Shown piece by piece: positions 51,001 to 54,000 of a DNA stretch of 64,000 nucleotides. Made by a program: the position numbers. Position 1 is the stretch's first letter, and every line of letters begins with the position of its first letter. This stretch comes from Thermodesulfobacteriota bacterium (GTDB taxonomy: Bacteria > Desulfobacterota_D > UBA1144 > Nemesobacterales > Mycalebacteriaceae): the NCBI GenBank assembly GCA_965198945.1, contig CBDAQI010000013.1:191160-255159 (forward strand), given 5' to 3'.

Positions 51001-54000
51001 GACATTGTGGAAAATTCCAGAATTGAATCAGTCATTTCACGACACGGAGACAGATTCATGGAACGGCTTTTCTCCAAAACTGAAAGAAACCACTTTCTCA
51101 AATTCAACTCATCGGTCCAAAGTATCGCCGCTTCATTTGCCGCGAAAGAAGCTTTTGTGAAAGCCCTTGGAACCGGTTTCAGATACGGTATTTCTTTTTC
51201 TGACATGGAAATTATCAGAGACTCGCGCGGAAAACCGTTTATTAAACTTTCGGGCAAGGCGGAAGATTTCTTCCGGAAAATGGGAGCAGGGCACATACAC
51301 CTTTCAATGTCGCACGAAAAATCACACAGTGTGGCCGTTGTGGTGCTTGAATCCTGATGAGTCCCCAAAACCCGCTTGATTATCTTGACTCTCTCAGTCA
51401 GCACACCGTTAAACCCGGACTTGAAAGAATATCAAACATTCTGAATGCCGCCGGCAATCCCCACCTGTCGCCAAACACCGTTGTTATAGCGGGAACAAAC
51501 GGAAAAACATCAACCGCGTCCATGCTTTCGGAAATCCTGATTTCATGCGGTTTTACAACGGGTCTTTATACTTCGCCCCACCTTGTCCGGGTCGGAGAGA
51601 GAATAAAGATAAACGGCAAACCAATAAGCGATTCCTATCTGGGAAATTTGATTGACAGAGTTCGCATAATTTCCGGGGACGGCAAAATAAAAGCGAGTTA
51701 TTTTGAGACCGTCACCGCCGCCGCCTTCATATCGTTCCACGAAAAAAATGTTGATTTTGCAGTCATGGAAACCGGAATGGGTGGGAGGTGGGACGCCGTA
51801 AACGCGGCGCGCCCCACGGTGTGCGCCATAACAAATGTTTCCATGGACCACATTCAATATCTGGGTGATACGCCGGAAAAAATAGCAGCTGAAAAAGCGG
51901 GAATAGCAAAGAAAAAAGTTCCTCTTGTAACGGCCGCAGAGGGAAATGCCCTGAAGGTGATTGAAAAAAAATGTTCGGAGAAAAAAACCCCTCTTTTGAA
52001 AATTAAAAGAGACTTTAATTGTCTGCAAACCGCACGGGAAGTTTTTTCATATTCCGGTCGGTCGTGGAATATTAAAAACATCCGCCTTGGCATGGCAGGC
52101 GGCTTTCAGATAAAAAACGCATGTCTGGCCCTTGCTTGTGCGGAGATCATTTCCGGACGCGGCTTTGATATTAATCCGGAACAAGCAAAACAGGCTCTTG
52201 AAAAAACCCGTGTCGGAGCAAGAATGGAATACACGAGAGTATCCCCTCCCCTTATTATAGACGGCGCTCATAATTCGGAATCAGCCCGCTGTCTTACGCT
52301 GTCAATAATGGAAAATCATCCCTCGGAAAAGTTTGTTTTTATAATAGCCATGTCAAATGATAAAAATCCGAAAGAATTTTTCAAACACATAGAACCGGTT
52401 TGCCGGCGCCTTATACTCACCCGCTCACAAAGCCTGAAAGGTGAGAGACCGGAAACACTTATGAAATTAGCGCCCGTGAGCATTGAAGCCGAAATTGCGG
52501 AAACAACGGAAGAAGCGTTGAAAACAGCCTTGAAAACAGCCCTTCCCTGCTGTGTTACCGGTTCATTGTATTTTGCGGGAGATGTAAAAAAACTTTTTGA
52601 AAACGGCTCAATCAAGATTTAGGAATTCGCACATTCCGCAAATTTTGGAAAACCCGTGGTCTCCCATTACACTTTCAAGATCGCTCCTGCCGTATTTTGT
52701 AGTCAGAATAATTTTTCCCCGCCTTCTCCATCTGTGAGAGACTATGTTCTCAAACACGCTTTTCTCCCAATCGGTAAGTTCACGCGAACTCATTCCCACT
52801 CCGTCCAGAATAAGCACCTTTGCATTAAAACAGGAATCAAGAAAAGCGGATTCCGAAACCCCCTCTTCTCTGCTTTTGAGCCGCAGAATTAAATCGCTAA
52901 AATCCTGGAACAGACAGTCTATCCCGTTTCTCAGAGTCAAACGAGAGGCGGCGGCGGCGGCAAGGCGCGTTTTCCCGCGGCCGGAGGAGGAGGAAAGAAT
53001 AAAACTTTTTTCGCGCGGATACCCCGCTATGAATCTCTCCACATATTGCGCGGCGGAGATCATATTTTTTGTTCCCTGCGCGTTCACTTCTACGAAAGCC
53101 ATAACGGCAGGTATCCTGGCGTTATTGTATTTTTTCACATTGTTGTGAACGGCGGAGCAGGCGGAGCAGGCAATTTTGTATCTGTATTTGTCTTCTTTTC
53201 TTCTTTCAACCGTGAAACCGCATCCACCGCATTTTGTGCAGTTTTTTTTGCACTCGCATATATGTGCGCGGGCAAAATCCCGGCCGGGCTCTATTAAATA
53301 AAAAAGACCGCCGCATTTTTTACATTTGTCCATTTTATGCAGTTTCGGTCAAAAATCCGTTCAGTGGCGTCAAAATGGCTGAGAGTTCACTTTTTCCATT
53401 TAATGTTGCACCCCATGCTCGGAATCTGATTTGCGGGAGGCGAATTTCCATCAACGGCTGCTTCAAGGGCTTCTCTGAGGTCTTTTCCGGTAACCGGCTT
53501 TCCGTTTTCAGGTCTTGAATCATCAAGCTGCCCCCGGTAGACACAGGAAAGATTTCCGTCAAAAACGAAGAAATCCGGTGTGCAGGCGGCGTCATATGCT
53601 TTTGCCACATCCTGGGTCTCATCAAACAAATATGAAAACGGATAGTTAAGTCTTTCCGCGTCATCGCGCATCTTTTCGGGTGAATCTTCCGGGTAGTTTT
53701 CAACATCATTTGAATTAATGGCCACGAAAGAAACACCGCGTGCGATGTAATCATTTGCAAGGTTTACGAGTTCGCTTTGTATATGTTTCACATATGGGCA
53801 GTGGTTGCATATAAACATAACAACGGTTGCAACATCGGATTTGAAGTCACCGAGAGTTTTCATTTCACCGCTTACGGCATCGGGAAGATTAAAATCAGGG
53901 GCTTTCATCCCCAGGGGAATCATATTTGAAGGTGTAAGAACCACAATGAACCTCCTTGTTATGTCATTTTGAGTCTGAAAAACCGGTCTTTTTATGGGTT

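Follow-up and report, generated by a model that had tools for sequence, protein, structure and literature searches.

How a bacterium that carries no recognisable DciA could load its replicative helicase is the question raised by a gene at 52608..53333 (minus strand) of the window, the 64,000-nucleotide stretch of a Mycalebacterium contig analysed here. Helicase loading outside E. coli and Bacillus is only partly known. In the part of the literature dealing with its distribution, bacteria are described as having either DciA or, after domestication of a phage gene, DnaC/DnaI, and never both (Brezellec et al. 2016, PMC5109545). The host genome (1.39 Mb, 95% complete) contains a single DnaB together with DnaA and PriA, and neither DciA nor lambda-P was found in searches of it. 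According to the survey's finding, the gene encodes the DnaB loader of its lineage and represents an independent take-over that replaced DciA. The first part of this claim, still unproven, is supported by fold matches, a predicted complex and a partner gene, and on balance we favour the reading that the product is a DnaI/DnaC-type loader of DnaB, within a picture drawn from comparative data and predictions. The second part did not survive the comparison with other lineages.

The putative loader gene and its genomic surroundings

The open reading frame encodes 241 amino acids from an ATG start, in which a DnaC/DnaI-type AAA+ domain comes after a double zinc ribbon, an architecture recognised in the survey and borne out here by the ORF call, Pfam, the structure model (pLDDT 95.9) and the family alignment. 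The two tandem ribbons take up residues 1-59 (53157..53333, minus strand), as seen from invariant cysteines and from β-hairpins of the model at residues 12-25 and 40-55. The AAA+ domain occupies residues 89-241 and, with the stop codon, extends over 52608..53069 on the same strand; the motif table and the alignment both present its catalytic motifs as degenerate. In Pfam the product matched IstB_IS21 (PF01695; E 2.3e-10, residues 108-227, 40.8 bits against a cut-off of 24.1) and no second family over cut-off, and in NCBIfam it matched PRK08116, PRK06835, DnaC PRK07952, IstB and DnaI, all far below their cut-offs. The best match among PDB sequences was the DnaC of Aquifex aeolicus (3ECC; E 2e-14, residues 91-217), and the fold search with Foldseek was headed by 3ECC/3EC2 (E 9e-11 and 3e-10, target TM 0.74-0.81), 6QEM/6QEL, 2QGZ and 2W58. 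Both by sequence and by fold, helicase loaders rank above IstB and DnaA among the solved relatives, and the product belongs to the AAA+ proteins of the DnaC/DnaI/IstB group (PF01695) that lie closest to known loaders. The solved construct of Aquifex DnaC is devoid of the N-terminal region, so that this match covers the AAA+ domain only. Its Walker B motif is D-D, a form also seen in loaders from the other order of the phylum. The copy in the window, by contrast, has lost its catalytic residues.

In regard to its surroundings, the gene is found among acpS, folC, genes for a peroxiredoxin and a CDGSH protein, rpe, glnS and ilvE. The folC gene (51357..52622, plus strand; Pfam Mur_ligase_M and Mur_ligase_C) is convergent with the loader gene, and their 3′ ends overlap by 15 bp. 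The survey had described folC as its usual neighbour, which is true in the strict sense only for Mycalebacterium, as a deacetylase-like gene is placed between the two in all five of the other Dadabacteria loci scanned. Directly upstream of the loader there is now a peroxiredoxin-like gene (53387..54088, minus strand; Pfam AhpC-TSA, E 1.7e-17, residues 60-179), which probably starts later than at the listed TTG and which, in the locus comparison, is missing from the equivalent place in two sister genomes. It is followed by rpe (54228..54962, plus strand), identified as ribulose-phosphate 3-epimerase by Pfam (E 8e-69) and by synteny, which in Dadabacteria loci is the conserved upstream anchor of a block formed by rpe, the partner gene discussed below and the loader gene.

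With IstB_IS21 as the sole Pfam family, the gene could alternatively encode an IstB-type transposition helper, or be a remnant of phage or plasmid replication with no role in chromosome replication. Mobile relatives with a zinc ribbon do occur, one next to an integrase on a Persephonella plasmid (31% identity, E 2e-22), another in Leptospira phage LE1. IstB itself is encoded together with IstA, often in multiple copies. The loader gene, on the other hand, is present in a single copy, and the other PF01695 matches over cut-off in the host genome are DnaA and PhoH. The ORF and Pfam scan found no transposase near it in the window, neither here nor in 24 further scanned loci is it accompanied by IstA, a transposase or a phage gene, and its synteny is conserved across the phylum. 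The IstB proteins of IS21 (5BQ5, 8Q3W) have PF01695 and the AAA+ fold in common with the loader, but the two IstB sequences examined start with a helical region and carry no zinc ribbon, the model IS21_help_AAA gives the loader 46 bits against a cut-off of 200, and both trees put true IstB proteins outside the family, as its outgroup. We therefore regard a role in transposition or a mobile remnant as highly improbable, and the view of a single-copy, vertically inherited gene in housekeeping context, independent of any IS element, is upheld.

Zinc ribbons and the predicted complex with DnaB

A 35-row alignment of the family shows C4, C7, C26, C32, C35, C56 and C59 without exception, and C28 in at least 90% of the sequences. 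Judging from the order of the cysteines and from the hairpins, C4, C7, C26 and C28 would form the first ribbon, and C32, C35, C56 and C59 the second. All eight had been reported as invariant; however, in the phylum's other order the loaders are devoid of the first ribbon and keep at most three of the cysteines, so that the set of eight is an order-wide and not a phylum-wide character.

Complex prediction with full-length DnaB, loader residues 1-100 and two zinc ions resulted in a median ipSAE of 0.70, compared with 0.01 for the best of three controls, with a contact agreement of at least 74% and a partner pLDDT of at least 68 in the runs. The calibration was set without the purpose-made alignments or the riding zinc used here; in it, 116 of 157 solved complexes attained that ipSAE mark, as against 2 of 215 mismatched pairs. 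The predicted interface brings loader residues 35, 38-42, 44 and 48-55 together with DnaB residues 185-189, 220, 224, 228, 255 and 428-442, which belong to the helicase's C-terminal domain, and by this prediction DnaB is bound through the hairpin of the second ribbon. Placement of the zinc-ribbon end on DnaB, already predicted in the survey, is thus obtained with the N-terminal 100 residues alone. As DnaB-DnaC and DnaB-DnaI complexes are already solved, the score may partly reflect likeness to them.

Among the known systems, Firmicute DnaI shares with the loader a zinc-binding domain at the N-terminus for interaction with the helicase (predicted for the loader), followed by a DnaC/DnaI-type AAA+ domain (fold matches 2W58, 2QGZ and 5HE8). 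In the part of the published work that describes it, the N-terminal domain of DnaI is a zinc-binding fold contacting the helicase's C-terminal domain (PMC3791466), an interaction that for the loader studied here is predicted. The two are nevertheless set apart by sequence families. The loader has no match to Pfam DnaI_N at E up to 1, PRK08939 covers only its AAA+ part (30.6 bits against a cut-off of 228), its eight cysteines are arranged in two tandem ribbons, its family resides in phyla other than Firmicutes, and its relatives coexist with DciA. E. coli DnaC (6QEL/6QEM) is likewise an AAA+ loader held to the C-terminal tier of DnaB by a small N-terminal domain. That domain, however, is helical and without zinc and, in the same part of the literature, not homologous to the one of DnaI (PMC3791466), and E. 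coli DnaC is found outside the loader family in both trees.

A probable DnaD-like partner gene

The loader also has a conserved partner gene, which the survey had overlooked. In the window it is located at 54952..55611 (plus strand) and encodes an all-helical protein of 219 amino acids with a putative N-terminal DnaD-like domain, 39-42% identical to the product that in sister genomes is encoded immediately upstream of the loader; a profile search found it as the sole copy in the host genome. Here an inversion has parted it from the loader. At 27 of 29 loci of the order and 57 of 59 Dadabacteria contig loci, the partner is situated immediately upstream of the loader and on the same strand, with a modal gap of 1 bp (47 loci). 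It is present in 98 of the 101 genomes of the order, and the three genomes without it are the same three that have no loader. At the same time, none of the 19 genomes of the phylum's other order has the partner, and it is missing from 11 of the 21 loci inspected outside Dadabacteria, so the pairing is not obligatory.

The profile PHROG 7498, annotated as DnaD-like helicase loader, was matched by 39 of 48 members of the partner family (best E 1.3e-11), with the copy in the window giving a weak match over residues 15-65 (E 0.0036). Pfam DnaB_2 stayed below cut-off and was matched by 4 of 16 members (best E 0.0015). Residues 15-86 superpose on the DnaD domain 2I5U with Z 6.8 and rmsd 2.5 Å over 67 of 77 residues, a result tied with unrelated helical bundles, and NCBIfam returned scattered one-off matches only for the 48 members. 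A Foldseek search with the whole partner model gave nothing at E 0.001 or better; lambda P (9OA1), listed in its second row, was discounted (E 0.6). Similarly, a match of the partner profile to influenza HA2 among PDB sequences (E about 1e-4) was disregarded as coiled-coil noise over helical low-complexity stretches.

The partner gene adds independent support to the reading of its neighbour as a helicase loader. An adjacent DnaD-like gene is something the loader shares with Firmicute DnaI, and in B. subtilis dnaB and dnaI are located in one operon. The Firmicute system, however, consists of DnaD plus DnaB, whereas the partner described here has about 220 amino acids and one recognisable DnaD-like domain. 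The E. coli DnaC partner DnaT is unrelated to DnaD. Phage modules (PHROG 7498 and relatives, as in genes 04-05 of Iodobacter phage PhiPLPE) show the same arrangement, with a DnaC-like loader coming after a DnaD-like gene, and their DnaD-like profiles match the partner family. The phage loaders are 24-33% identical to the loader, and in contrast to the phage modules, the Dadabacteria module is chromosomal, single-copy, syntenic across the phylum and placed among housekeeping genes.

Degenerate ATPase motifs of the Mycalebacterium copies

Motifs were compared in a table against 250 family rows and in a further alignment. The rest of the order and the other phyla hold GxxGxGKT (Walker A), IDE[LM]G (Walker B), TTNY (sensor I), SRL (Arg finger) and DYRK (sensor II), a complete set, as opposed to the Mycalebacterium copies. 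The loader in the window has SSSSGRGKT as Walker A, LDG as Walker B, TTKY as sensor I and SKI at the Arg-finger position, and its C-terminal sensor II tail (DYRK) is absent. The D-G form of Walker B, known from the survey, recurs in six of six Mycalebacterium sequences, as do the K in sensor I and the missing tail, while the Arg finger has changed to K in two sequences and the Walker A lysine to T in one. Loss of nearly all residues for ATP hydrolysis had escaped the survey. With the Walker B Glu and the sensor I Asn replaced and no sensor II tail left, the Mycalebacterium loader is, from its sequence, probably ATPase-dead.

A copy lacking the Walker B Glu, sensor I Asn, Arg finger and sensor II tail is an argument against a loader role, and the Mycalebacterium gene could in that case be a decaying relic with little or no function left, its AAA+ site dead and the operon with the partner broken in this genome. 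Besides the motif changes and the inversion, the long stem of these sequences in the trees (0.79-0.93) would fit such decay. Against it, the reading frame is intact in six of six genomes of the genus, with 50-56% identity and all eight cysteines kept, the partner gene is retained too, and the N-terminal residues of this very copy produce the complex score given above; moreover, small genomes would tend to lose useless genes. In published work on E. coli DnaC, each such single motif change abolished ATPase activity, with the sensor I mutant being the most compromised in loading. The helicase-binding domain (residues 1-75), itself without ATPase, nonetheless loaded DnaB at about half the wild-type level in the same work, which offers a precedent for the degenerate copies. 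We consider a functionless relic improbable, and a loader that has dispensed with ATP hydrolysis is the interpretation we carry further.

Distribution within the phylum and coexistence with DciA

Of the 101 genomes of the order, 98 carry the loader, with all 26 genera represented (31-56% identity); each has one copy, apart from split or partial matches at contig ends. DciA was not found over cut-off in any of the 101 genomes, in a search whose control was found in 7 of 14 genomes; three sub-threshold matches (E 0.012-0.09) are chance matches. The survey's statement that the order lacks DciA and almost always has the loader is therefore sustained, and its smaller sample of the phylum's other order (loader in four of five genomes, DciA in none) pointed in the same direction as the total of 19 genomes, where the loader was found in 16 and DciA over cut-off in none. 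Phylum-wide, DciA over cut-off was found in 0 of 120 genomes.

Trees were built with FastTree and quick IQ-TREE runs, and constrained trees were compared by the AU test. In the free trees, Mycalebacterium and the other order have long stems and fall outside the main clade of Dadabacteria. We do not take this topology as a sign of gene transfer, as trees holding the order or the phylum as one clade were not worse (p-AU 0.80 and 0.74, respectively) and both reached a higher likelihood than the free quick tree.

Searches and trees also revealed a broad chromosomal family, within which the Dadabacteria loaders make up a single branch. In several loci outside Dadabacteria the loader adjoins gyrB, holA or mnmG/gidA. 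Of 15 genomes tested from other lineages, 12 contain a family member along with DciA over cut-off, and in one other phylum, where 81 genomes were sampled, 60 were family-positive and 57 of these had DciA too. A resident gene in place of DciA, as formulated by Brezellec et al. 2016 (PMC5109545), is thus found inside the phylum and not family-wide. Mutual exclusion, the main argument for equivalent function, fails for the family, and the absence of DciA in Dadabacteria alone does not assign its job to the loader. This is also where an independent take-over or replacement of DciA had to be abandoned. The simplest history is that Dadabacteria lost DciA while keeping an older module, given that the family is broad and coexists with DciA.

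Such coexistence opens another explanation, as the family may have a narrower role, e.g. in restart only. The module could then be an accessory or specialised system, serving PriA-dependent restart or particular conditions, and not the successor of DciA at oriC, with origin loading in Dadabacteria performed by an unrecognised factor or without a loader. The presence of PriA in the host genome, the dispensability of the partner in the phylum's other order and the decayed catalytic motifs in Mycalebacterium are in line with this. It has to be set against the outcome of the host genome searches, where DciA, lambda-P and a second DnaC/IstB-like gene were all not found, against the predicted binding to DnaB, and against the retention of the loader in genomes of 1.2-1.6 Mb and in streamlined ones of roughly 1 Mb. 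In view of these observations a purely accessory role appears unlikely, though less so than the relic discussed above, and a general DnaB loader continues to be our preferred reading.

Proposed mechanism and implications

If the product is a DnaB loader, its second N-terminal zinc ribbon would grip the C-terminal RecA-like domain of DnaB, as the predicted complex suggests, and the AAA+ body would be positioned behind the helicase ring, as likeness of fold to the DnaC and DnaI complexes would have it. Gene coupling and family matches suggest that the loader could act with the product of its DnaD-like neighbour, in the manner of Firmicute DnaD/DnaB-DnaI and of phage modules consisting of a replisome organiser and a loader. 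In the DciA-free Dadabacteria, going by the searches of the host genome for DciA, lambda-P and a second DnaC/IstB-like gene, the module would be the only recognisable helicase-loading system, presumably serving both initiation at oriC and PriA-dependent restart. The Mycalebacterium loader would probably be an ATP-independent ring opener working through its helicase-binding end.

No published account of the module, or of a helicase loader in these lineages, was found among open-access papers and bioRxiv (for the query by lineage name, among the 10 best of 217 matches). Tentatively, and with more doubt than for the loader function itself, a wider scenario can be put forward, in which the DnaD-like protein and the zinc-ribbon loader constitute an old, vertically inherited second loading system of several non-Firmicute phyla (Dadabacteria, a Nitrospinae-titled phylum, and Myxococcota-type and SAR324-type MAGs). 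It would mostly exist alongside DciA with a division of labour, e.g. restart versus origin firing, against the published rule that the two never coexist. Dadabacteria, as natural DciA knock-outs, would then leave all of the work to the module, and the Mycalebacterium loader would have become an ATPase-dead, DciA-like passive ring opener.

Under the preferred reading, the locus would put a whole candidate phylum on the DnaC/DnaI side. A pair of DnaD-like protein and loader in the style of Firmicutes or phages is found in unrelated phyla, and its occurrence in DciA-bearing genomes turns the job of two loading systems in one cell into a testable question. The Mycalebacterium copies, for their part, are natural mutants devoid of the residues for ATP hydrolysis, and could provide a test, in a real organism, of the suggestion based on E. 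coli that the helicase-binding end is enough to open the ring.

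The putative loader gene and its product

The loader gene (52608..53333, minus strand) is an intact ORF of 241 aa with an ATG start, convergent with folC (51357..52622, plus strand) and overlapping it by 15 bp. Its only Pfam match is IstB_IS21 (E 2.3e-10, residues 108-227), and all its NCBIfam matches (PRK08116, PRK06835, DnaC, IstB and DnaI) lie below the cut-off. It is surrounded by acpS, folC, genes for a peroxiredoxin and a CDGSH protein, rpe, glnS and ilvE, and no transposase was seen among the annotated neighbours in the window, which bears out the survey's finding of an IstB_IS21-only gene outside any IS element. 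In these surroundings, a role as a mobile-element helper seems very improbable. The genome (1.39 Mb in 14 contigs, 95% complete) holds one such gene, the remaining PF01695 matches over the cut-off being DnaA and PhoH. It encodes one DnaB and also PriA, and searches of it for DciA and lambda-P found neither.

In regard to structure, sequence comparison places Aquifex DnaC (3ECC/3EC2, E 2e-14) first among the solved proteins, followed by E. coli DnaC (6QEL, 2e-10) and DnaI (2QGZ/2W58). In the AlphaFold model (pLDDT 95.9, pTM 0.90), Cys pairs flank each of two beta-hairpins, at residues 12-25 and 40-55; a helix follows at 60-71, and the AAA+ fold starts at about residue 89. The N-terminus of the model can be read as two tandem zinc ribbons. 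A Foldseek search with this model returned helicase loaders at the top, namely 3ECC and 3EC2 (E 9e-11 and 3e-10), 6QEM/6QEL, 2QGZ, 2W58 and 5HE8/9, with IstB (8Q3W, 5BQ5) and DnaA ranking below them. A 35-row family alignment contains a GxGKT P-loop, the motifs IDELGKG, LISRRYN, TTNY and SRLxEMC, and a C-terminal GxDYR. The eight Cys previously described as invariant are so at seven positions (C4, C7, C26, C32, C35, C56 and C59), while C28 is kept at 90% or more; in the phylum's other order the first ribbon is lost and at most three Cys are left, the ATPase motifs being kept with D-D as Walker B. In most genomes of genus g19 of the order (loci L016-L033, L035, L037-L039 and L100), the P-loop reads G-P-G-L-A-K-T, with Ala replacing the Gly before Lys and the remaining motifs canonical. 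Two proteins from the representative-protein search, P0033 (827 aa) and P0072 (792 aa), contain three or four DnaC-like P-loop modules in tandem within a single chain.

Docking of the zinc ribbon on DnaB had also been proposed, and it was predicted again when full DnaB (450 aa, 40-row alignment) was modelled with loader residues 1-100 (35-row alignment) in the presence of two zinc ions. A median ipSAE of 0.70 was obtained, against 0.01 for the best of three controls, a mark that was attained in 116 of 157 solved complexes and in 2 of 215 mismatched pairs; contact agreement was at least 74% and partner pLDDT at least 68. The predicted interface joins the second-ribbon hairpin (35, 38-42, 44, 48-55) to the DnaB_C domain and its C-terminal strand (185-189, 220, 224, 228, 255, 428-442). 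Since the AAA+ domain was left out, the score cannot stem from its likeness to solved DnaB-DnaC structures. The model's memory of another contact may still lie behind it, because the zinc-binding N-terminal domain of DnaI is described as contacting the helicase C-terminal domain (PMC3791466). As a model-based result, the prediction supports binding of DnaB by the zinc-ribbon end.

Distribution and the probable DnaD-like partner

The loader is present in 98 of the 101 genomes and in all 26 genera of the order, at 31-56% identity and, as the survey had it, in one copy each, except for split matches at contig ends. The reported lack of DciA likewise holds, with no match over the cut-off in the 101 order genomes or in any of the 120 of the phylum, the control search being positive in 7 of 14 known genomes. 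The phylum's other order is represented by 19 genomes of about 1 Mb, and 16 of them have the loader. AU tests rejected neither the order (p-AU 0.80) nor the phylum (0.74) as one clade, and both constrained trees have a higher likelihood than the unconstrained quick tree. These results and the conserved synteny fit vertical inheritance of the loader, which the survey had proposed.

In Candidatus Dadabacteria, the group to which these genomes belong, the local order is metK or rsmB, rpe, an ORF of 204-246 aa and the loader, with a deacetylase-like gene and folC on the opposite strand. The ORF, without any Pfam family over the cut-off, immediately precedes the loader, on the same strand, in 27 of 29 loci of the order and in 57 of 59 Dadabacteria contig loci, and the commonest gap is 1 bp (47 loci). 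The loci that depart from this are the window's own, one with a gap of 172 bp, and two with an over-extended start from the ORF caller or a larger gap. Its profile matches 98 of 101 order genomes; the other three are those in which the loader too is missing, which points to gaps in their assemblies. PHROG 7498, 'DnaD-like helicase loader', is matched by 39 of 48 members (best E 1.3e-11), and PHROG 16826, of the same name, by 17, while Pfam DnaB_2 gives sub-cut-off matches in 4 of 16. The model is all helical (pLDDT 89.3), and its residues 15-86 align with the DnaD domain 2I5U (Z 6.8, rmsd 2.5 Å, 67 of 77 residues), a score tied by unrelated helical bundles. The partner is thus probably a DnaD-like protein, the window copy's own match to the PHROG profile being weak (E 0.0036, residues 15-65). 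By profile search it was found in none of the 19 genomes of the other order, where the loader comes right after rpe.

In the window, the partner (54952..55611, plus strand; sole copy in the genome) directly follows rpe. Compared with the sister-genome order of folC(+), loader(-), partner(-) and rpe(-), the rpe-partner block is inverted, and the genes for a peroxiredoxin-like and a small CDGSH iron-sulfur protein (53387-54251, minus strand; zf-CDGSH, E 7e-16) now separate this block from the loader. The place of this pair is occupied by the partner gene in sister genomes. A deacetylase-like gene (Hist_deacetyl, E ~1e-95 to 1e-103) lies between loader and folC in all five non-Mycalebacterium Dadabacteria loci scanned (L052:4827-5864, L067:4817-5875, L078:4822-5856, L082:5261-6295 and L113:4896-5942); Mycalebacterium lacks it at this place, the 3' ends of folC and the loader overlapping.

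Degenerate ATPase motifs in Mycalebacterium

The six loaders of Mycalebacterium, the genus of the window, were compared with roughly 250 aligned family rows. All six have D-G as Walker B, as the survey stated, instead of the family's D-E, together with TTK[YH] instead of TTNY at sensor I, and lack the C-terminal DYRK tail. The Arg finger is replaced by K in the window loader and one other sequence, one sister reads GRGTT and has thus lost the Walker A Lys, and the first P-loop Gly of the window loader is Ser. Such changes could be those of a decaying relic, which we consider unlikely; the eight Cys are all retained and the frame is intact in all six genomes, at 50-56% identity. For E. coli DnaC, PMC8213410 reports that any one of such changes abolishes ATPase activity, and that residues 1-75, the helicase-binding and ATPase-free part, load DnaB about half as well as the wild type. 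Because this ATPase-free domain still loads DnaB, it is plausible by analogy that the Mycalebacterium loader works without ATP hydrolysis.

A wider family that coexists with DciA

Searching 1.84 billion representatives with the loader gave 194 matches at E <=1e-10, and the majority of the top 150 start to align at residue 3-4 and have paired CxxC motifs; a genome scan confirmed 478 relatives. Those at ~40% identity include proteins of MAGs titled Myxococcota, Microvenator, Lujinxingiaceae, SAR324, Nitrospinae and 'Deltaproteobacteria'. In the source records, relatives are annotated as 'DNA replication protein DnaC' or 'hypothetical'. Our literature search found no published account of the loader or the module. 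Contexts outside Dadabacteria are chromosomal, with mnmG/gidA in five loci, gyrB in one and holA in one, and no mobile genes were seen around the loci scanned. The DnaD-like partner is upstream in 10 of 21 such loci, at times as a single domain of 91-104 aa. Bradymonadia-like loci, adjoined by mnmG/gidA, instead have a HEAT-repeat protein of ~190-207 aa directly upstream of the loader (L108:3106-3705, L121:3122-3691 and L118:3220-3843).

Trees rooted on IstB (202 and 53 rows) group the typical Dadabacteria in one clade with high support (100 and 99) and leave IstB, E. coli DnaC and a phage DnaC outside the zinc-ribbon family. The 202-row tree nests this clade within the larger family (support 95); in the 53-row tree the typical-Dadabacteria, Mycalebacterium and other-lineage clades form an unresolved three-way split. 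One long branch within the family is a protein of Leptospira phage LE1, whose placement is unsure. This protein (L133:2956-3822, annotated 'IstB-like') and one on the Persephonella marina plasmid NC_012439.1 (L132:4016-4741; 31% identity, E 2e-22), next to a site-specific integrase, are mobile relatives with N-terminal Cys motifs.

DciA was over the cut-off in 12 of 15 family genomes of other lineages, including those nearest the Dadabacteria clade. Among 81 sampled genomes from the phylum of the Nitrospinae-titled MAG, the family was found in 60 (E <=1e-25), DciA in 76 and both in 57. Such coexistence suggests a narrower role of the module, for example in restart, with origin loading in Dadabacteria performed by something unrecognised; this is the main alternative, to which we give a clearly smaller chance than to a general DnaB loader. 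The occurrence of dnaC together with dciA in 22 Vibrionaceae genomes is put down to prophages in the account of PMC11087808, an explanation that does not fit the loader gene, because it is single-copy, syntenic and placed among housekeeping genes. In the phylum of genome G106 (G135-G214), many DciA-domain matches lie in frames of ~740-800 aa (for example 764, 755 and 801 aa) instead of the usual 100-180 aa, which suggests that in part of it the domain may be fused to a large protein.

The independent take-over proposed in the survey does not hold against this breadth of the family and its coexistence with DciA. From these distributions, Dadabacteria would therefore have lost DciA and kept an older module, with no replacement acquired. 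What stands of that proposal is the DnaB loader itself: most likely, the protein is a DnaI-like loader acting with a DnaD-like partner, which would be the one loading system recognisable in a phylum devoid of DciA and would work independently of ATP hydrolysis in Mycalebacterium.
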